Source: Eledone cirrhosa
Taxonomy: Eukaryota
DNA length: 64,000 nucleotides
Assembly: GCA_964016885.1 (NCBI GenBank)
Contig: OZ024741.1
Location: 98,208,001 to 98,272,000 of the forward strand
Direction: 5' to 3'
The position numbers and the translations under genes were made by a program. Under the pieces are notes generated by a model, which did no database searches, was not told the DNA's origin, and was given only the letters and a program-made list of their open reading frames with translations. Shown here one piece after another: positions 3,111 through 59,310 of this stretch; positions within the stretch are counted from its first letter, which is position 1; every line of letters begins with the position of its first letter.

Positions 3111-3572
3111 AAATTCGCTATTGGAAGATTATTAACCCATCATTGATTGACCAAAATGCTAATTGGTTCGTAACTTTTAATAACCGGTTCAAATGCTTTA
3201 TGCACTTAATTGATAAGCTTATTCGCTTTCAAACCACGTTTACCTGTATGTAACTTTTCATAGCAAATGAACAAACCCGAGCAACGCCGGGCTAAACTGC
3301 TAGTATATATATATATGTGGGTGTGTGTGAGCATGTGTGTGTGTGCGCGCGTGTGTGTGTCTGTGTTCGTGTGGGGGGGGGGGGCGTGTGAACAAATATA
3401 TAAATGCCTAATCACTTTTTAAATGCCTCCATAATGCAGTAGATATAAAACAAGACGAATTAATATTTTACCCAGTATATTTCAACGTGATATTCCAAGC
3501 CTAATATCCTCTGTTCAAATGTGAAACGAAAGCACTTCAAAACAAAACGAAAGATTTATATAAGGAAAAGAG

Positions 3573-3607
3573 CCCTAACATTCGGACACTAGTTCTTCAT
3601 CAGAAGA
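3573..3607 (-). ncRNA. Degenerate type-I hammerhead motif (family B-like)
   Basis: Minus strand TCTT-CTGATGA-AGAAC TAGT GTCC-GAAT-GTT-AGGG; GAAA core is mutated. Confidence 0.55.
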
Positions 3608-3715
3608 GAGAATGAGAGATAAAAGAAATACAACGATACAGAATTGAGAACAAGAAAGAATGGAAAGATTTTGAGGATATAAAGCACGTGTGTGTTCTAT
3701 CAGGTATTTTGATGT

Positions 3716-10132: not shown

Positions 10133-10678
10133 TTATAAATATAAGCTATCGCCGTATTTTGACTAAAGAAATTAAAGAAAATTATTTAGCCTGATAGTGG
10201 GGTTAAGAACCCTCGGAGAAATGGAAAAAGATGAGTATTGACGTACATGGGAGTCGAACCCACATATTTGGTTATCCAGACCACTGTGCTACCATTACAC
10301 CAACACATCACCCGTCTTCCTCCATTCAAATTAGAAGCTATAATCTTAGCAACTGTAAATGTCAAGTAAGAATATTTTCGAAACAGCGAGCAAGTATTCT
10401 TACTTGACATTTACAGTTGCTAAGATTATAGCTTCTAATTTGAATGGAGGAAGACGGGTGATGTGTTGGTCTAATGGTAGCACAGTGGTCTGTATAACCA
10501 AAGATGTGAGTTCGACTCCCATGTACGTCAATACTCATCTTCTTTTCCATTTCTCCGAGGGTTCTTAACACCACTGTCAGGCTAAATAATTTTCTTTAAT
10601 TTCTTTAGTCAAAATACGGCGATAGCTTACATTTATAATTTCAAACTCGCTTGCTGTTTCGAAAATATTCTTACTTGA
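10133..10678. mobile_element. Fold-back element with about 240-bp arms containing a tRNA-like segment
   Basis: 10133-10374 is the reverse complement of 10395-10638; A box TGGTCTAATGG and B box GAGTTCGACTC at about 10456-10530; the loop sequence is re-copied in inverted form at 10646-10678; TA runs on both sides. Confidence 0.8.
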
Positions 10679-31267: not shown

Positions 31268-31649
31268 ACTCTTAAATGCAAGCCTTCTACACTGTGGAAA
31301 TTTTTTCTTTCCTGATTTTCACCGTCATTTCCTCATGAAAATGTTTTAAATGGCCGACATTTTCCCGCCATTCTGCGTGTCTTTTTCCTTTCTTCATTCT
31401 GCGTGTCTTCTTCCTTTCCCGCGCACAGTGTATATTCTTCAATCCCACCAATCTGATTGGCTGCATCGTGCCACGTGACGGCGTCTTCACCAAAAGCATT
31501 TTTTTTCTCAACCGGCCATCTTGGATTCTTCTACTGATTTCAATTGAATTCACGTGAACTGATTTCGGAATTCCAGTATAACCTTTTGGTCGTATAGCTG
31601 CTTCAAAGACATAATTCGTCCTTAAAAATTCTTCAAACCTTCGGCAATC

Positions 31650-32579
31650 ATGAATCCACATAATTTGCCGACCTTTGCAGGCGACATCAAATTATTGTTT
31701 TCGCAGCTCGAGTGCTATTTCGATTTGACCCACACCGAAAAACAGCATAAATTGAAGGTGCTTATTAACGGCCTGCCTGTTTCTTTGGCATATTCCGTAA
31801 AGGATGTTATAACGAATTTAGCTGAAGATGTAACCTATGGCTCATTAAAACTAGAAATTCTTCGTAGGAATACTAGGTCTGTGGAGAGCCGTTTTCGGGA
31901 ATTATTGGAGGATGCACAGAAGGGTAACAGAACGCCAACCTCCTATTTGCGACATCTACGTGAGCTGAGCGACTCCCAAGGAATTGATACATTCTTCATT
32001 AAACAGCTATTTTTTTCCCGTTTACCGCCAAGTGCGCAAATGGTCTTGGTCAATAATTTGGAGAGGGAGTCGTTAGATCAACTTGCCGCCTCCGCGGATA
32101 AAATACTAGAGGTGGACTCTAACAGCAGTCGGCATAATCCTTGTATGGCTTCTTCTTCTGTTCCTCCACGCAATTCTTCTGTGGTCGACAGCAAACTGTT
32201 GGAAATGATCGAAGCGCTCACCAAAAAAGTGGAGGATTTGACCGTACAACATAGAGATCCTTCTCAACGTTTAAGGTACCGTTCGCCTCCGTCTGCTATT
32301 CCTCGAAACCGCTACGAGTACCGTTCGCCACCGTCTTCTGTGCCTCGCCAACACTACACTTCAGGCAGCAGTAATTCTTCTATTTGTTGGTTAAATGTTA
32401 ACTTTGGCAGTCGGGCGCAGCGCTGTCGGGCGCCTTGTAACTATAGGAGTTCGGAAAACGCAAAGCAGAGCCACGAGGGGCGGCTAGTGAACTCCTGGGA
32501 AAATCGACCGAACCGCCATCTTTTCGTATACGACCTGCGGTCGAAAAACTTTTCCTTGTCGATACTGGCGCGTCGCTGA
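31650..32579 (+). CDS. gag: Gypsy Gag, 309-aa ORF
   Basis: LPTF..DIKLLFSQLECYF, GNRTPTSYLRHLREL, LFFSRLP and degenerate knuckle CWLNVNFGSRAQRCRAPC. Confidence 0.8.
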   Translation: MNPHNLPTFAGDIKLLFSQLECYFDLTHTEKQHKLKVLINGLPVSLAYSVKDVITNLAEDVTYGSLKLEILRRNTRSVESRFRELLEDAQKGNRTPTSYLRHLRELSDSQGIDTFFIKQLFFSRLPPSAQMVLVNNLERESLDQLAASADKILEVDSNSSRHNPCMASSSVPPRNSSVVDSKLLEMIEALTKKVEDLTVQHRDPSQRLRYRSPPSAIPRNRYEYRSPPSSVPRQHYTSGSSNSSICWLNVNFGSRAQRCRAPCNYRSSENAKQSHEGRLVNSWENRPNRHLFVYDLRSKNFSLSILARR

Positions 32580-33082
32580 GTATTTGGCCAGTCAGTTATC
32601 TCAAAAAAAACCCATCTGAATCAAATATCAATTTACGAGCAGTCAACCACACGGCCATTCGAACGTATGGGCAAATTTCGCTTCCTCTTCGGTTTAAAAA
32701 TTTGCGTCGTGAATTGAAGTGGAAGTTTACTATCGCCGACTTGCCATATGCCATTTTGGGAGCGGATTTCCTCCACCATTTTCCCTTGTCGATTGACATC
32801 CGCAGACAACGACTTTTTTATGCTAATACAGGCCTATCGTTCGAGGGTACACAGCCGGAGATCGCCACAGTAAGCCCTACTTTTTTCTTGGCTGAAGTGG
32901 GCAACCAGTATCACAGTTTGTTAAAATCATTCCCACAGCTGACGCAAGGAAGATTACGAATTGCTAGTCCGGATCATGTGATTGATCATTTTATATCCAG
33001 TACAGGTCCACCTGTTTTCTCACGTCCTCGAAGATTATCTGCAGAGAAGTTGAAAGCTGCACGTCTTGAATTCGACCACATG
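32510..33082 (+). pseudogene. pol: Gypsy protease and truncated RT N-terminus
   Basis: FLVDTGAS in a shifted frame, AILGADFL, GPPVFSRPRRLSAEKLKAARLEFDHM, then truncated. Confidence 0.85.
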
Positions 33083-33161
33083 ATCCGGACTAGCAATCCG
33101 TAATCTTCCTTGCGTCAGCTGTGGGAATGATTTTAACAAACTGTGATACTGGTTGCCCACT

Positions 33162-33303
33162 AAATAACGACGCGGGACTCTGTCGAGGCCCCGCGGTCGG
33201 AATGAGTACACTTCAAATCCGTTAACGAGGATCGACCGGAGGGCAAGTCTGGTGCCAGTAGCCGCGGTAATTCCAGCTCCGGTAGCGTATATTAAAATTG
33301 TTG
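33162..33303 (+). rRNA. 18S rRNA fragment of about 140 bp captured inside the LTR element (not a functional gene)
   Basis: GGAATGAGTACACTT..AACGAGGATC..GGAGGGCAAGTCTGGTGCCAGTAGCCGCGGTAATTCCAGCTCC..TAGCGTATATTAAA matches the universal eukaryotic SSU 530-loop region. Confidence 0.93.
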
Positions 33304-33392
33304 ATACATGCTTCCACATTTTGTAAACGACCTTGTGGGTCCTTCGCTTCATCGTTAACGATTTTTCGACAAAAAATCTGCTCCGAGACGAA

Positions 33393-33855
33393 TGTAGTGA
33401 CTGAGATGGTCGCTTAGCAACTAGCAGTTGCCTCCCCTTAACAACTCTTCAGAGAGCGGAGGCAATATACATCCGGTCACAGTCGCGGGTTGGCTCACTC
33501 TCTTTGGACCGCGGACATGAACAGACGTGAAATGATTCGCTTCTAAAAATATTAACCATGCTGGCTTCGTGAGGGACTATGTGAAAATGCCCTCCTTCGG
33601 ATCAAGGACGCCACGATATCTCGACTAATATGCATTAGCTTATTCCTTCGTTATTCCTGCACCGGAGAATATAATTAAACTACTTCTATTAACCCACAAG
33701 GTATTGTTTGAATTGACATTGTACATAATTTATTAAATGTTGCATTTAATAAATGATCGTTGATTTTTTACTGTTCACCCCCCTTCTGGAGTCATTTATT
33801 TCTACAAAGAGAAACGATGTATTGTCCATTCATCCACAATCATTCGTTTCCTTTA
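33393..33855 (+). repeat. 3' LTR
   Basis: Copy of 30705-31167 with a few substitutions. Confidence 0.92.
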
Positions 33856-44643: not shown

Positions 44644-44727
44644 TATATATAAAGGGAACTGATGAGAGGTAAACGCACATACACACAAACACACGGAAAC
44701 ACATACATACATATATATATATATACA

Positions 44728-44759
<32 letters not shown>

Positions 44760-45104
44760 CACGTACACACACACACATATATATATATATTTATTTATAT
44801 ATAAATTGAAACAAAATGAAAACGAAATTTCATTTCTCACTCTTAGTATGGCACTTACTTAAATGTAAGTATGCATGTATACGAACATACACATATGTAT
44901 ACAGACGTACAGTAGCATGCACATATATATATATATATACATATATATATACATATGCATACAGGTACACATACATATATGCACGTATCAGTTTAGCGGC
45001 GCTAACGCCGCTTTGTTCGTTTGTAAACAAACTGAACAGCCTGAATTTATGCCATACGGTGTTAAGGCAACCACGTCACCTTTTTGTTCAACACTGACAC
45101 AGGA

Positions 45105-45147
45105 ACGATGTACTAGTTTCAAGCTTGTTAGCTATCATCAGCACCGT
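45105..45147 (-). ncRNA. Type-I hammerhead ribozyme, array copy 1
   Basis: ACGGTG-CTGATGA-TAGCT AACA AGCTT-GAAA-CTAGTA^-CATCGT. Confidence 0.85.
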
Positions 45148-45572
45148 TTACCCATCTGCCAGATAGTTGAACGTTCGAAAGTATATACTTTCCTTATGAA
45201 AATTAACGGCTGAGCAGCCTAATTTGCATATTGAGTGAGTTAAATCGGTCAGGCATACCGAAAACGATAAATTGAAACAAAATGAAAACGAAATTTCATT
45301 TCTCACTCTTAGTATGGCACTTACTTAAATGTAAGTATGCATGTATACGTACATACACATATGTATACAGACGTACAGTAGCATGCACATATATATATAT
45401 ATATATACATATATATATACATATGCATACAGGTACACATACATATATGCACGTATCAGTTTAGCGGCGCTAACGTCGCTTTCTTCGTTTGTAAACAAAC
45501 TGAACAGCCTGAATTTAAGCCATACGGTGTTAAGGCAACCACGTCACCTTTTTGTTCAACACTGACACAGGA

Positions 45573-45615
45573 ACGATGTACTAGTTTCAAGCTTGTTAGC
45601 TATCATCAGCACCGT
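45573..45615 (-). ncRNA. Type-I hammerhead ribozyme, array copy 2
   Basis: Identical to copy 1. Confidence 0.85.
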
Positions 45616-46040
45616 TTACCCATCTGCCAGATAGTTGAACGTTCGAAAGTATATACTTTCCTTATGAAAATTAACGGCTGAGCAGCCTAATTTGCATATT
45701 GAGTGAGTTAAATCGGTCAGGCATACCGAAAACGATAAACTGAAACAAAATGAAAACGAAATTTCATTTCTCACTCTTAGTATGGCACTTACTTAAATGT
45801 AAGTATGCATGTATACGTACATACACATATGTATACAGACGTACAGTAGCATGCACATATATATATATATATATACATATATATATACATATGCATACAG
45901 GTACACATACATATATGCACGTATCAGTTTAGCGGCGCTAACGTCGCTTTGTTCGTTTGTAAACAAACTGAACAGCCTGAATTTATGCCATACGGTGTTA
46001 AGGCAACCACGTCACCTTTTTGTTCAACACTGACACAGGA

Positions 46041-46083
46041 ACGATGTACTAGTTTCAAGCTTGTTAGCTATCATCAGCACCGT
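46041..46083 (-). ncRNA. Type-I hammerhead ribozyme, array copy 3
   Basis: Identical to copy 1. Confidence 0.85.
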
Positions 46084-46506
46084 TTACCCATCTGCCAGAT
46101 AGTTGAACGTTCGAAAGTATATACTTTCCTTATGAAAATTAACGGCTGAGCAGCCTAATTTGCATATTGAGTGAGTTAAATCGGTCAGGCATACCGAAAA
46201 CGATAAATTGAAACAAAATGAAAACGAAATTTCATTTCTCACTCTTAGTATGGCACTTACTTAAATGTAAGTATGCATGTATACGTACATACACATATGT
46301 ATACAGACGTACAGTAGCATGCACATATATATATATATATACATATATATATACATATGCATACAGGTACACATACATATATGCACGTATCAGTTTAGCG
46401 GCGCTAACGTCGCTTTCTTCGTTTGTAAACAAACTGAACAGCCTGAATTTATGCCATACGGTGTTAAGGCAACCACGTCACCTTTTTGTTCAACACTGAC
46501 ACAGGA

Positions 46507-46549
46507 ACGATGTACTAGTTTCAAGCTTGTTAGCTATCATCAGCACCGT
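46507..46549 (-). ncRNA. Type-I hammerhead ribozyme, array copy 4
   Basis: Identical to copy 1. Confidence 0.85.
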
Positions 46550-46974
46550 TTACCCATCTGCCAGATAGTTGAACGTTCGAAAGTATATACTTTCCTTATG
46601 AAAATTAACGGCTGAGCAGCCTAATTTGCATATTGAGTGAGTTAAATCGGTCAGGCATACCGAAAACGATGAATTGAAACAAAATGAAAACGAAATTTCA
46701 TTTCTCACTCTTAGTATGGCACTTACTTAAATGTAAGTATGCATGTATACGTACATACACATATGTATACAGACGTACAGTAGCATGCACACATATATAT
46801 ATATATATACATATATATATACATATGCATACAGGTACACATACATATATGCACGTATCAGTTTAGCGGCGCTAACGTCGCTTTGTTCGTTTGTAAACAA
46901 ACTGAACAGCCTGAATTTATGCCATACGGTGTTAAGGCAATCACGTCACCTTTTTGTTCAACACTGACACAGGA

Positions 46975-47017
46975 ACGATGTACTAGTTTCAAGCTTGTTA
47001 GCTATCATCAGCACCGT
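46975..47017 (-). ncRNA. Type-I hammerhead ribozyme, array copy 5
   Basis: Identical to copy 1. Confidence 0.85.
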
Positions 47018-47277
47018 TTACCCATCTGCATATATGTATGTGTACCTGTATGCATATGTATATATATATGTATATATATATATATATGTGCATGCTACTG
47101 TACGTCTGTATACATATGTGTATGTACGTATACATGCATACTTATATTTATATATATATATAGCAAAAAGTAGTTAAAAATGCAGTTGAAGTCTTTAAGA
47201 AGGTGCATTCACAATGATACATATCTTTACTGGTTTCACATATTGCATGTTATTCAAAGGTTAAGAGCGATGGAGAG

Positions 47278-47324
<47 letters not shown>

Positions 47325-47335
47325 TATATATGGCT

Positions 47336-47593
47336 GTATGTGTTTCCGTATGTTTGTGTGTATGTGTGTTTACCTCTCATCAGCATTTTTGCAAGAGATG
47401 TCAACATGAATGGACCTGTTACTTTTACCTAAACGCATTTTTTCCAATTCCATCCCGCTCGTCCCCTCAATCTATTTTATTTCTCATTCTTTCTTCTGAA
47501 ACATTAATGCCCTCTTCCTGCTATATCAAGCGTTAACCTAATATATACCTTCCATTTACTGTACCGATTATGTTGTTATTTCTGTTTATCATT

Positions 47594-53835: not shown

Positions 53836-54062
53836 ATGTAAAAGGAAAACAGAAATAACAACAAAATTGGTACAGTATATGGAAGGTATATATTAGGTTA
53901 ACGCTTGATATAGCAGGAAGAGGGTTTTAACGTTTTGGACGTTAGTCCTTCATCAGAAGAAAGAATGAGAAATAAAATAGATTGAGCGGACGGGCGGGAT
54001 GGAATTGGAAGAAATATCTTTAGATAAAAATAACAGCTCCATTCATGTTGACATCTCATGCA
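53836..54062 (-). mobile_element. Family B repeat with hammerhead motif
   Basis: Minus strand TT-CTGATGA-AGGAC TAAC GTCC-AAAA-CGTT-AA at about 53925-53960, a G12 to A change. Confidence 0.72.
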
Positions 54063-55334: not shown

Positions 55335-56220
55335 TGAATTTAGGCGATGTCTACAAGAACTAAATAAATTCGTCCTTACATTAATAGAGTTCTTAGATTT
55401 AAGTATGAAGAAAATTTCCTCAACACACAATTTGCAAAATCTAGATAAAGCTGTGTTACGGTATGCGGGTGCTTCCGAAACTATTTCTCAAGTTAAAGAA
55501 TAGTCCATATTCTTGCATTTTAAGTTCCATATCAGGTGTGAAAGAGAAGTTGAAGATTTGTTATCAAGTCTTTGGAAAGAGGATTTGTGATTATTCCAAC
55601 AAATTTTAAATTCTGTAGAAGTTGCACCTACATATTTAAATATATTATCACTGATTTTGACTGTACATTTATAGACCACGTCCTTATCTAAGCACATATT
55701 TTTTAAAGGACAGTTTCATTTAATTCTACAGTTACATTTTGCGGAGTTGGTGTTATTCGGAACGGTACTATTATGTAGGATATTACTAGAGATATTACTG
55801 CTATTTTGATTATGGTTTAAATTTCTATTATTGATTCTATTTATATTTTGTGCTATGTTCATAGTAGTAGATTAAGATAGTTTTATTGTATGTCTGTTAA
55901 AGATTAAGTGGTATCTATGGGCTTTAGGAAAACATTTATTTAGTGCTTTAACGAATAGCTTTGCTAAAGGTGTTTTAACGCTTAATGAGAATGGGGGTGG
56001 GTACCAAATAATATTTCTAGTTCTATTTTTTCTGTTAGTTTTAGAGTTTAAGTTAGATATTTTATTGAAATTATTAGTAGGGTTATTTGCCTTATCACTG
56101 TTGTCGATGTATTTAATCTTATTTACATAGCCTGCTCTATTTAAAGCTTCATTACAATATTCTGCCTTATCGACAAAAATGTGTTTATTAGCGGAGATGC
56201 GTGAAATACATTGTTGGATA
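55335..56220 (-). pseudogene. PLE linker and GIY-YIG endonuclease remnant
   Basis: IIWYPPPFS..CFPKAHRYHLIFN, CNC..CP, CLDKDVVYKCTV..KYVGATSTEFK..NH, LCVEEIFFI..LNVRTNL..CRH. Confidence 0.85.
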
Positions 56221-56811
56221 GAATTTACGTTTTTAAAATATATAAATATAAATATTCTTATTAACTCAGTTAACTTAATTTAATTTAACTTAATATTTAC
56301 TTACATTAAATATAAACCAATATCCTCATAACTCATTAAAACAATTATCTATAAGACGATATACCCATCTATCCATTTATTTATCTATTTATCTATTTAT
56401 TGATCTATTTTTCTATTTATTTTTCTATCTATTTTTCTATCTATTTATTTTTCTATCTACTTATAACAGTAAATATTATATTAGAAAAGAATTTTAACAA
56501 CTAATTAATCGTAAATACACGTACCATTAGTAGATATATACTTGAAATATATTCCCCCAAATTAACGTTACATGAGTTCTATTCATCCTCTTGTTAATTT
56601 CTTCTCTCTATCTCTCTCGTAATATTTTTTTTCTCTCTCTTTCTCCAGTGTCATTTAAATAAACGGTTGTTTTTCAATTATCTACATATTCATTTGCATA
56701 TTCACACATAACTTTGAATAATCCCTAATATATTTCTACTATCCAGTGAATTTCCAACCAATAAGGTATGATTTTCATGGGTATGTTTCTATTTATAAAA
56801 CAAACTTTGTA

Positions 56812-57073: not shown

Positions 57074-59310
57074 ACGAGACAGAGGCACAGTTCACCATAG
57101 CTAGAAATAAGATAGACAAATAGTAGACCGGTAGGAAACTTGGGAGGAAACCTGGGAGGAAACCTGTAGAAGGCTTCGTTAGCCTCAAGCAGCCTACAAG
57201 GGATGGTGAGGTAGTATGTCTACCCACGGATAAGTCTGGTAGGATGTAAATAGATAGCATGCCGAACTACATCAAGGCTATGCAACCCCACATCACCAAC
57301 ACGAGCGAAATTGCACAGCAAATACATGATGGGAGAGAGAAAATCCTCAACGCTCGCATCATGATGTGGACCGACATCCTAAAGCCAAGCAGACGCACTG
57401 CCAACAACTTCCAGGCGTCTAACAATGGCATACCACCCTTGTATGGGCTCCGCAAAGACCACAAGACAGTCGACAACCCGACAACAGGACCACCAACAAG
57501 ACCCGTATGCGGAGCTAATATAGCTAGCAACTACAGGATCTCCTACTTCCTCTCAATGGTTATACGCCCCATAATCAAGATGTCCACAGATGTATGTGAC
57601 AGTACAGAGGACCTCCTCAGCAGAATCAGTGAGTGCAACAAAAACAGGAACCTATCCAACTGCATAATAGGCAGCATGGATGTGGTATCACTGTACCCAT
57701 CCATTAACATTGTTTTGCTGTGGAAAAATGTGTGGAGATGATCATTGAGAGTGAGGTGGAGTTCTGCGACGTCGACACAGACGAACTGGGCCTCCTACTT
57801 AGACTTACCTACGACACTGAATACCTAGACAGCCATGACCTTAGACGTTTCTGCCCCAGTAGACCCATAAGAGGTAGACCCCCCCACCATAACCTCAATG
57901 GCTAAAAAGACTCCCATCGGAAGGTGGATTGGGTGGACCAAAGCTATACGGACCCCCAAAACAATGATCAGGTAAGAAAAATGGTCGCACATGCAATAGA
58001 AGCTAGTATCAAAACTACCCTAAAGAGCCACATATTTAAGTTCAACGAGAAGATCTACACCCAAAATGAGGGAGCAGCCATTGGCGTCAGCATAGCTGGT
58101 GACGTTGCCAACCTTTTTATGGTATGGTGGGAAAGGAGACTTAAAGATCTCCTTAATGAGAGCGCCATAGACCTCATCATGTACTCTCGTTACGTAGACG
58201 ATATCAATATAGTTATAAGAACATCCCCACAAGAGAGCACTAACAAGTTGGATTTAGAACGTAGCACAAAGGAAAGCATCCAGCAGATAGCTATTTCCAT
58301 ACACCAGAGTATAACTGTAACTATCGACTACCCTTCCAAACACCCTAACAATAGACTACCTGTATTAGACACGGAACTCTGGATTAACACTATAGACGAG
58401 AGAGCCCAAATTCTCCACTCACACTATGCTAAACCCATGGCCTGCAAATACCTGATACTCAAAAACTCAGCAATGTCCAGTAGTGCTAAGTTTAATATTC
58501 TGATCGCAGACTTGGTACGAGTGATGAAGAACGTGTCCCGCATATGCGACCCAACAGAAATGGAAAGACACATCCAACACTTCAGCAACCGCATGCAGTT
58601 CTCTGGCTACAACCAAAGAGACAGAGTCAAAGTATACGAAGGAGCCACGGAGAAGTATAAGACCCTCATAGAACTTGACATGAAAGGAATTTGCCCATTA
58701 TACAGGAGCAAATCATGTAATAGCTTAGATAGGGCTAGACATAAGATAGGGAAAGCCACCTCATGGTACGACAACCAGAGATACCAGAGTGTCATTTTGT
58801 GGACGCTACCCCTGGAGGGAAATTAGCAAACCAGTGTAGAAAGGCCCTGAGAAAGACCCACTTAAAGATTAAGGTGGTAGAAAAGCCAGGAACCGCCATA
58901 AAATCCCTGATCAGCTAAACCTACCCTTTTAAGAAAACCCACTGTACTAATAGGAAATATATCATATGTAAGGTAAACCCCCGGATAAACTGTAAAACTA
59001 GAAACGTAGTCTATAGCATAAGATGTACAGAGGGTACTTGCAGAAACATGACAACAACATACATAGGCGAGACAGCTCGTAGCATAGGTGAAAGGATAGA
59101 CCAACACTGGGGGAACTAAAAGGACGAAAAAACGGTTCAGTACTATGCGAACATGCCAGACAAAAACACGACGGTAACATAGACAACATAGAAATAATAG
59201 AATAATATCTAAATATAGAAATGACCCAGCAGATAGGCAAATCAGAGAGGCCAGTGAAATAGAACTTAGAAGGCCAAGGCTAAACAGAAAGAATGAATGG
59301 AATAACAACA
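57074..59310 (+). pseudogene. PLE reverse transcriptase-GIY-YIG ORF, frameshifted
   Basis: PTDKSG, LYGLRKDHK, TRPVC, SMDVVSLYPSI, GAAIGVSIAGDVANLFM, RYVDDI, LPVLD, NVVYSIRC..YIGETARSIGERIDQH. Confidence 0.93.

Follow-up and report, generated by a model that had tools for sequence, protein, structure and literature searches.

Judged from its sequence, a 468-bp tandem repeat of Eledone cirrhosa that carries a hammerhead ribozyme in every unit is a new and abundant animal non-LTR retrozyme. All of the features of this class that can be tested in DNA fit, except for a U-U variant in the ribozyme. The repeat was recognized as an array in a 64,000-nt stretch of the genome (contig OZ024741.1 of GenBank assembly GCA_964016885.1, positions 98,208,001 to 98,272,000 of the forward strand; "the window"). 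The genomic evidence that the 468-bp retrozyme is mobilized by Penelope-like elements (PLEs) is unusually clear, and mobilization of such repeats by PLEs has already been proposed in print (PMC7229834; 10.64898/2026.07.22.740005). We somewhat favor the reading that the array is one insertion of a high-copy retrozyme, targeted to (TA)n by means of a borrowed PLE enzyme and probably copied from a unit-length RNA circle.

A first-pass annotation of the window had proposed the retrozyme as a family of which it knew no description. Our literature search likewise found none; supplementary files and repeat databases may list the family. The rule for the tails and the octamer promoter box, both set out below, were also without prior description in that search, and supplements may hold some of this material. 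Cephalopod terms were absent from two of the three supplementary files of PMC4209133.

The array, its family, and its ribozymes

As the first-pass annotation had it, the array comprises about 4.8 near-identical, non-coding 468-bp units (Tandem Repeats Finder: 44801-47029, period 468, 4.8 copies, 98% matches). The extent given there, 44801 to 47150, holds for the tandem part, which ends at 47029, whereas 47027-47150 is a 124-bp inverted copy of unit positions U128-253. The main and inverted arms have ~3 bases in common at their junction, where they overlap (47027-47029). Unit coordinates run along the minus strand, with U1 the base directly 3' of the predicted cut (Table 1). From cut to cut, the four complete units measure 468, 468, 466, and 468 nt. 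The units, 466-468 bp long, lack an LTR and a long reading frame; the sole frame of at least 120 aa that overlaps the array traverses the inversion and the microsatellite. At U96, the five units read C, G, C, G, C, and the G also occurs in scattered units at other loci of the family. No target-site duplication could be read around the insertion (44740-44800 and 47151-47161).

Table 1. Positions in the window of the array, its parts, and its predicted functional elements
Feature	Position	Strand	Remark
Main arm, 4.8 head-to-tail units	44801..47029	-	5' end U420; 3' end is the "long" end U312, then (TA)n
Inverted second arm, U128-253	47027..47150	+	its "short" end, U253, runs into (TA)n
59-nt "tail", U254-312	44801..44859	-	only one of the insertion's ends has it; hairpin also in sister family
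Microsatellite-like internal segment, U128-253	45794..45919	-	predicted long hairpin; length differs among copies
Target tract, (TA)n/(CA)n, left side	44740..44800	.	right side: short (TA)n at 47151-47161
Type I hammerhead copy 1	46972..47023	-	predicted cut 46981/46980
Type I hammerhead copy 2	46504..46555	-	predicted cut 46513/46512
Type I hammerhead copy 3	46038..46089	-	predicted cut 46047/46046
Type I hammerhead copy 4	45570..45621	-	predicted cut 45579/45578
Type I hammerhead copy 5	45102..45153	-	predicted cut 45111/45110
Octamer-containing 12-nt box, U349-360	45687..45698	-	matches -78 box of host U6, U6atac, RNase MRP
Further copies of the 12-nt box	45219-45230, 46155-46166, 46621-46632	-	sequence match
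TATA-like element, U391-398	45649..45656	-	42 nt past the box

Several other sequences in the window deserve mention. Two 101-nt inverted arms, 84% alike and each starting with CTGATGA, flank the insertion (44659-44759 and 47283-47383); they have no hammerhead stems, and no further copy was seen in the fetched loci or the window. An LTR-retrotransposon gag/protease fragment (DUF7041, RVP) lies at 31626-33450, apparently interrupted near 33235-33282 by a short piece resembling small-subunit rRNA. A PIF1-like helicase frame at 2004-2762 on the plus strand (Pfam E 4e-49) is, we presume, probably a Helitron fragment. Two tRNA-like sequences in opposite orientation, 10239-10309 (-) and 10460-10530 (+), are probably SINE heads.

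How large is the family? In the 3.0-Gb genome examined, there are 10,541 exact copies of the 34-nt ribozyme core and none of its reversed control. In keeping with an octopod host, though no proof of one, the best named relative of one retroelement protein of this genome is from Octopus vulgaris (65%). As an unbiased sample, we took all 52 loci behind the first 100 core matches listed on one contig (C1). These loci carry 117 ribozymes: 21 have one, 14 have two, 10 have three, and 7 have four to ten. The dispersed, non-coding tandem family of variable unit number that had been envisaged is thus borne out. Longer arrays also exist: L084-L087, selected from the first search, hold 14-21 or more units inside the 10 kb fetched, are internally mixed, and display recurrent higher-order patterns of variants, as is typical of local expansion or unequal crossover.

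There is also a sister family, with 9,522 pattern matches genome-wide and units of 461-469 bp (L083:4200-6100 on contig C9; L124-L153). It has a G-C pair at the base of stem II and a GUC or GUU triplet, together with the promoter box and tail hairpin of the 468-bp family. The two families are ~61% alike in a global alignment and have their length and ORF-less design in common. At L083, sister-family units are joined directly to units of the 468-bp family, and one sister-family array on contig C1 runs to ~30 units. At L034:6295-7225 lies a further hammerhead repeat, the third, arranged in tandem with a period of 310 bp and with a palindromic stem III.

All five type I hammerheads of the window array are identical and lie on the minus strand (CTGATGA starting at 47011, 46543, 46077, 45609, and 45141), in agreement with the claim of one per unit. 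Stem I has 7 pairs, then a UA bulge, then two further pairs; stem II has 4 pairs above the U-U; stem III has 1-2 pairs within the palindrome ACTAGT. The canonical type I features are all present (CUGANGA, GAAA, an NUH triplet, stem I of ~6 bp, stem II of ~4 bp, and a palindromic stem III). Stem I, stem II with its U-U base, GAAA, the GUA triplet, and the predicted cut between 45111 and 45110 are all as first annotated. The motif had also been called complete, which is right for the core, stem I, and stem II, but it is complete only with the stem III of 1-2 bp in ACTAGT, which had gone unmentioned. The label "minimal" does not fit: by the description in PMC4209133, the ribozyme has the canonical tandem-repeat architecture instead of that of the "minimal" PLE hammerhead. 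The canonical metazoan type I hammerhead is described there as having a short stem III and as requiring a second copy to fold. Since stem III here is palindromic and only 1-2 bp long, cleavage probably requires two ribozymes paired through stem III.

Is the motif real? Two observations place it beyond chance: the 10,541 exact cores against none in the reversed control, and the change of 6 of 16 stem pairs on both sides between the 468-bp family and its sister, with the core and stem III fixed. Paired cells make up 93.8% across 10 sequences, against at most 46.7% in slid controls. Covariation is 0.383 against 0.140 after shuffling, a signal that comes mostly from the one split between the two families. 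Per-site conservation within the family was not used for the ribozyme because the loci had been selected by an exact core match. Core position 7 varies in the 468-bp family (T, C, G, or A), and the stem II base (10.1-11.1) is an unpaired U-U, as opposed to G-C in the sister family. An axolotl ribozyme with a U-U at this place is active: 22% of the monomer is cleaved, and the dimer does better (PMC7229834). We estimate -22.2 kcal/mol for the double hammerhead, whereas a pair of active monomers reaches -5.4; when the motif is folded alone, its most stable structure is an inactive one in which the core pairs with stem III, and it lies below the double form too. In a covariance-model scan, a check that the first-pass annotation had proposed, the Rfam hammerhead models stayed below the gathering score in the window and yielded no hammerhead among the 150 of 201 weak matches listed, which are microsatellite artefacts. 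Taken on its predicted structure, the hammerhead is quite likely to self-cleave.

The footprint of insertion

Where do the insertions end? Their 3' ends fall at two fixed points 59 nt apart, ~U253 ("short") or ~U312 ("long"), followed by (TA)n. Automatic calling gave 45 long and 39 short ends, a few of which are false. Where both ends of an inverted insertion could be called automatically, long is paired with short in 24 of 24 cases and like with like in none; one of these pairs (L039) is doubtful and probably a false call owing to a palindromic microsatellite. Beyond the 24, L034 and L073 satisfy the rule by eye; in about seven more inverted loci, one end is uncallable, and L042 could be short on both sides. 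The window insertion obeys the rule, with its long end at 44801 and its short end at 47150, and the arms of the sister family stop at the corresponding place, past the shared hairpin. In contrast to the fixed 3' ends, the 5' ends are scattered (50 ends over 43 positions), and the 3 of 50 that fall in U420-428, around the projected transcription start, are not a notable enrichment. Pol III terminators were considered as the origin of the long end and ruled out, as this end lies ~8 nt past the T-run.

The two fixed 3' ends, one-sided tail, 5' truncation, inverted adjacent copy, and (TA)n target are all features of the PLE type. PLEs have been described as leaving an inverted, 5'-truncated copy and a one-sided tail (10.1101/2021.04.23.441226); for an anole PLE, in vitro work showed that reverse transcription starts at two internal sites and that the tail is the sequence between them (PMC11167929). 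Because fixed 3' ends, a one-sided tail, and an inverted arm together make up the PLE layout, the 468-bp family has very probably been inserted by a PLE enzyme. No scar of cleavage or ligation, and no 5' end at the cut, came to light: of 246 junctions, 244 are seamless, and neither of the remaining two begins at the cut. This sample was chosen via the ribozyme core, and lone inserts ending at the cut lie outside it.

Which PLE might provide the enzyme? The candidate partner is a young, abundant PLE with copies ~99% identical and 1,473 candidates (L154-L173; L047:230-2870). It carries a type I hammerhead of its own and forms inverted insertions, and its two fixed ends lie ~90 nt from each other; pairing is long/short in all three of the inverted loci that could be resolved among 20. 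It has no Pfam match; we take it to be Neptune-type. Two of the 52 loci (L044 and L047) are mixed insertions with coding sequence of this element, and the one-tail rule holds across both elements. In one of 30 similarity-ranked loci (L009/L121), an array is joined to a second PLE with an unbroken 485-codon stretch. This PLE (L121:2260-4300) is 5'-truncated; its RT-to-endonuclease frame matches RT and GIY-YIG weakly, its 3' repeat contains a hammerhead, and its 5' end is fused at unit position ~U98. Direct joints with PLEs fall inside the reading frame, and the PLEs involved carry other repeats. Indeed, comparison of the unit with the two PLE families yields matches of only 9-13 nt, each PLE having its own unrelated hammerhead repeat, and an autonomous partner with a homologous repeat was not found in either family. 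Direct joints also occur with LINE ends (at the 5' end, 3 of 52 loci) and with a small two-ended element (2 of 52), so the mixed insertions are suggestive rather than decisive. PLE fragments that are merely near arrays (~10 of 52 loci) were discounted as evidence because both elements target (TA)n.

The small element is very common (L031:3300-3550, L038:4155-4200, L061:3530-3600, and others). It ends at two fixed points in (TA)n and its insertions are palindromic, with 39 motif matches in the fetched loci and a 10-nt word in common with the unit; no canonical hammerhead core was seen in it. The window itself contains fragments of two PLE-like frames at 57250-58826 (+) and 55872-56279 (-), 9-12 kb from the array and not joined to it; L067 and L079 hold copies with 87-93% protein identity to the former. 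At 53900-53990 (-) and 3560-3630 (-), the window also has degenerate cores that resemble hammerheads of the minimal PLE type and have no relation to the array.

Promoter, template, and rival explanations

How might the unit be transcribed? In an alignment of 11 units from both families, the 12-nt box does not vary. We viewed the upstream regions of 15 host Pol III loci (9 U6, 5 U6atac, and 1 RNase MRP). In seven of them, which represent five independent promoters, the box is at -77 to -79, and in two it is displaced by an insertion; the remaining six, in which it is missing at that place, are lower-scoring copies resembling retrocopies. At the corresponding place upstream of U1 and U2, it is absent from all 13 loci viewed. 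A matrix built from the five promoters has 98 matches in 802,870 positions, 97 of them within the 468-bp family, and scores the unit at 18.6, compared with 16.8-18.9 for the host training sites. The box together with its downstream motif has 17,645 copies in the genome. The host spacing is not reproduced: box and TATA-like element are 41-42 nt apart in the units versus 46-48 nt in host Pol III genes. Each unit has four T4 runs, and 45 of 119 internal units have a run of at least seven T's, which would be expected to stop Pol III. The spacing mismatch and the T-runs make Pol II transcription from the octamer and TATA-like element at least as likely as Pol III transcription. On the strength of these matches, we think it probable that the unit carries its own promoter, with a borrowed U6-type box; the projected start would lie near U420-428, ~10 nt ahead of stem I. 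Regarding the host genes (L088-L120, L174-L183), U1 and U2 promoters have TCAGT near -57, whereas those of U6, U6atac, and MRP have the octamer-like box at -78, and a TATA-like element is found in both classes. This difference could help in the design of small-RNA expression tools for this animal group.

A possible mechanism would run as follows. The octamer/TATA-like region would start transcription ~10 nt ahead of a hammerhead, giving an RNA that spans several units. Two hammerheads are predicted to pair through the palindromic stem III and cut, and the 468-nt monomers would be ligated into circles. To judge from the footprint, a PLE protein would nick both strands of (TA)n, and reverse transcription would begin inside the RNA, at U253 on one DNA strand and at U312 on the other. 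Each copy would proceed for a variable number of rounds until the two truncated copies joined head to head, leaving a tandem arm, an inverted arm, and a one-sided tail. Later, some insertions would expand locally into satellites, a step that is evident in the long arrays.

What is the evidence for a circular template? Over 214 positions, units differ on average by 2.5 within arrays (89 pairs, a mean inflated by partly aligned units) and by 6.2 between arrays (2,326 pairs). There are no differences among the four units of L046, and 0.29 among the seven of L034, versus 2.14 to the nearest other locus. Variants common to every unit occur in both arms at L034 and L035 and on one strand at L080. 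Short arrays that are near-uniform across both arms and have array-wide variants favor the copying of one unit many times, and an origin by rolling reverse transcription, as the first-pass annotation suggested, is plausible. The alternating U96 of the window array is not expected from a single monomer circle without later change. A "468 back" joint in the contig was ruled out as evidence of circles because tandem DNA gives the same joint. Elsewhere, one of nine retrozyme dimers tested was cleaved (10.64898/2026.07.22.740005), and circles are abundant for other animal retrozymes (PMC7229834). We consider it fairly likely that RNA circles of the 468-bp family exist; that a circle was the template of insertion is slightly favored.

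The rival closest to this reading keeps the PLE enzyme and dispenses with the circle. The family could be a non-autonomous PLE passenger copied from an uncut, linear read-through multimer, with cleavage and circles as a side product or later processing. For the anole PLE enzyme, cleavage is unnecessary for insertion in vitro and unprocessed RNA is the main substrate (PMC11167929); the seamless junctions, the U96 alternation in the window, the weak stem III, and the U-U at the base of stem II all point the same way. However, linear copying cannot add units or spread a new variant to every one of them, and it is the short arrays (L034, L035, and L080) that have array-wide variants, whereas the long arrays that might have been their donors are mixed. 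The abundance of circles for other animal retrozymes also speaks against a linear template, which we regard as unlikely, if by no means far-fetched.

Alternatively, an autonomous PLE yet to be found could be the source of the units, as multimers of its pLTR or as copies with internal deletions. This would account for the complete PLE insertion signature and for the PLE fragments near many loci. It has a precedent in Xenopus, where 24 of 57 retrozyme families match 22 Repbase elements, 21 of them PLEs, within pLTRs (10.64898/2026.07.22.740005), and a rare parent could escape genome searches that score the best 40 candidates. Among the 52 unbiased loci, however, no copy is in the pLTR position, flanking an RT and GIY-YIG frame, and the tail always runs on into the promoter region of the next unit. 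The first-pass annotation would have called the unit an ordinary pLTR multimer had it always lain beside a PLE ORF, which is not the case at these loci. In addition, both PLEs joined to arrays have unrelated repeats and hammerheads of their own, and two families only ~61% alike retain the same length and ORF-less design. Descent from a hidden PLE is thus improbable. Finally, the hammerhead could be vestigial and the arrays a satellite, with DNA recombination or LINE enzymes responsible for the spread. The variant patterns of L084-L087 and the LINE ends at three loci are what such a history might leave, but neither recombination nor LINE 3'-end priming would be expected to give fixed 3' ends inside the unit, a tail on one side only, or insertion into (TA)n, and the ribozyme stems covary; we consider this explanation very improbable. 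A PLE enzyme, probably acting on a circle, stays the preferred reading.

Relation to known elements and implications

The metazoan non-LTR retrozymes of Cervera and de la Pena (2020; PMC7229834) are similar in being non-coding tandems of low GC with a canonical type I hammerhead per unit, in having thousands of copies (~5,000 in mussel), and in co-existing with PLEs, which those authors name as the likely mobilizer. Their units are ~170-400 nt rather than 468 nt, and their expression and circles have been demonstrated, whereas those of the 468-bp family are predicted; two fixed 3' ends, tails, inverted arms, and an internal promoter are not described in the parts of that paper available to us. 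The vertebrate non-LTR retrozymes of Li, Clavereau, and Pollet (2026; 10.64898/2026.07.22.740005) have likewise been proposed to be non-autonomous PLE passengers. Their unit range of 51-972 bp encloses 468 bp, which corrects the first-pass view that the unit is at the long end for animal retrozymes. The case made there is based on co-occurrence and pLTR homology in Xenopus, and the present one on the insertion footprint, with no homologous pLTR found; the portion of that preprint we drew on names no mollusc group.

EN+ PLEs (Craig et al. 2021, 10.1101/2021.04.23.441226; Frangieh et al. 2024, PMC11167929) share the 5' truncation, inverted second arm, one-end tail, AT-rich or (TA)n targets, and a hammerhead upstream of two internal start sites. 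They differ in their pLTR-ORF-pLTR arrangement, as opposed to whole-unit tandems without a reading frame, and in having a tail of 30-40 rather than 59 nt and a minimal rather than canonical hammerhead. Non-autonomous Chlamys PLEs such as MRC1 have a 3' end resembling that of their autonomous partners, and no hammerheads are reported in nearly all Chlamys (Craig et al. 2021, 10.1101/2021.04.23.441226), whereas the 468-bp family has a hammerhead and no such partner was found. Newt satellite 2 (Coats et al. 1994, cited in PMC2220036) likewise consists of hammerhead units in tandem, has a stem III that is weak and palindromic, is active as a dimer, and has an internal snRNA-type promoter. That promoter is reported to be of the Pol II type (PMC2220036), whereas the box found here matches U6, U6atac, and MRP and not U1 or U2. 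One axolotl retrozyme type has the same U-U at the base of stem II (PMC7229834). The newt and axolotl repeats belong to another phylum and are likened to the 468-bp family by architecture, not by sequence.

What would the family mean for the biology of retrozymes? The class is already known, so the surprise is moderate. The enzyme that moves animal retrozymes, and how it does so, have been posed as open questions (PMC7229834; 10.64898/2026.07.22.740005). The 468-bp family offers a countable PLE footprint with start sites predicted to the base, making the mechanism testable with purified PLE protein, in the way already used for the anole element. A broader reading is possible, and we put it forward tentatively, as somewhat less than an even prospect: the twin families may be self-transcribing RNA circles that have captured a host U6-type box and that offer two fixed internal start sites to a dimeric PLE RT, with two RNAs copied together. 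Such a dimeric enzyme would sometimes combine a retrozyme arm with an arm from some other element. If true, this would be the first genome-scale footprint of animal retrozyme insertion, and it would provide exact start sites and a candidate partner for in vitro work. The promoter box suggests that each copy may be transcribed wherever it is inserted, an arrangement reminiscent of the newt repeat and its reported snRNA-type promoter. Given ~20,000 units in the two families together, circles could be abundant among the RNAs of Eledone cirrhosa.
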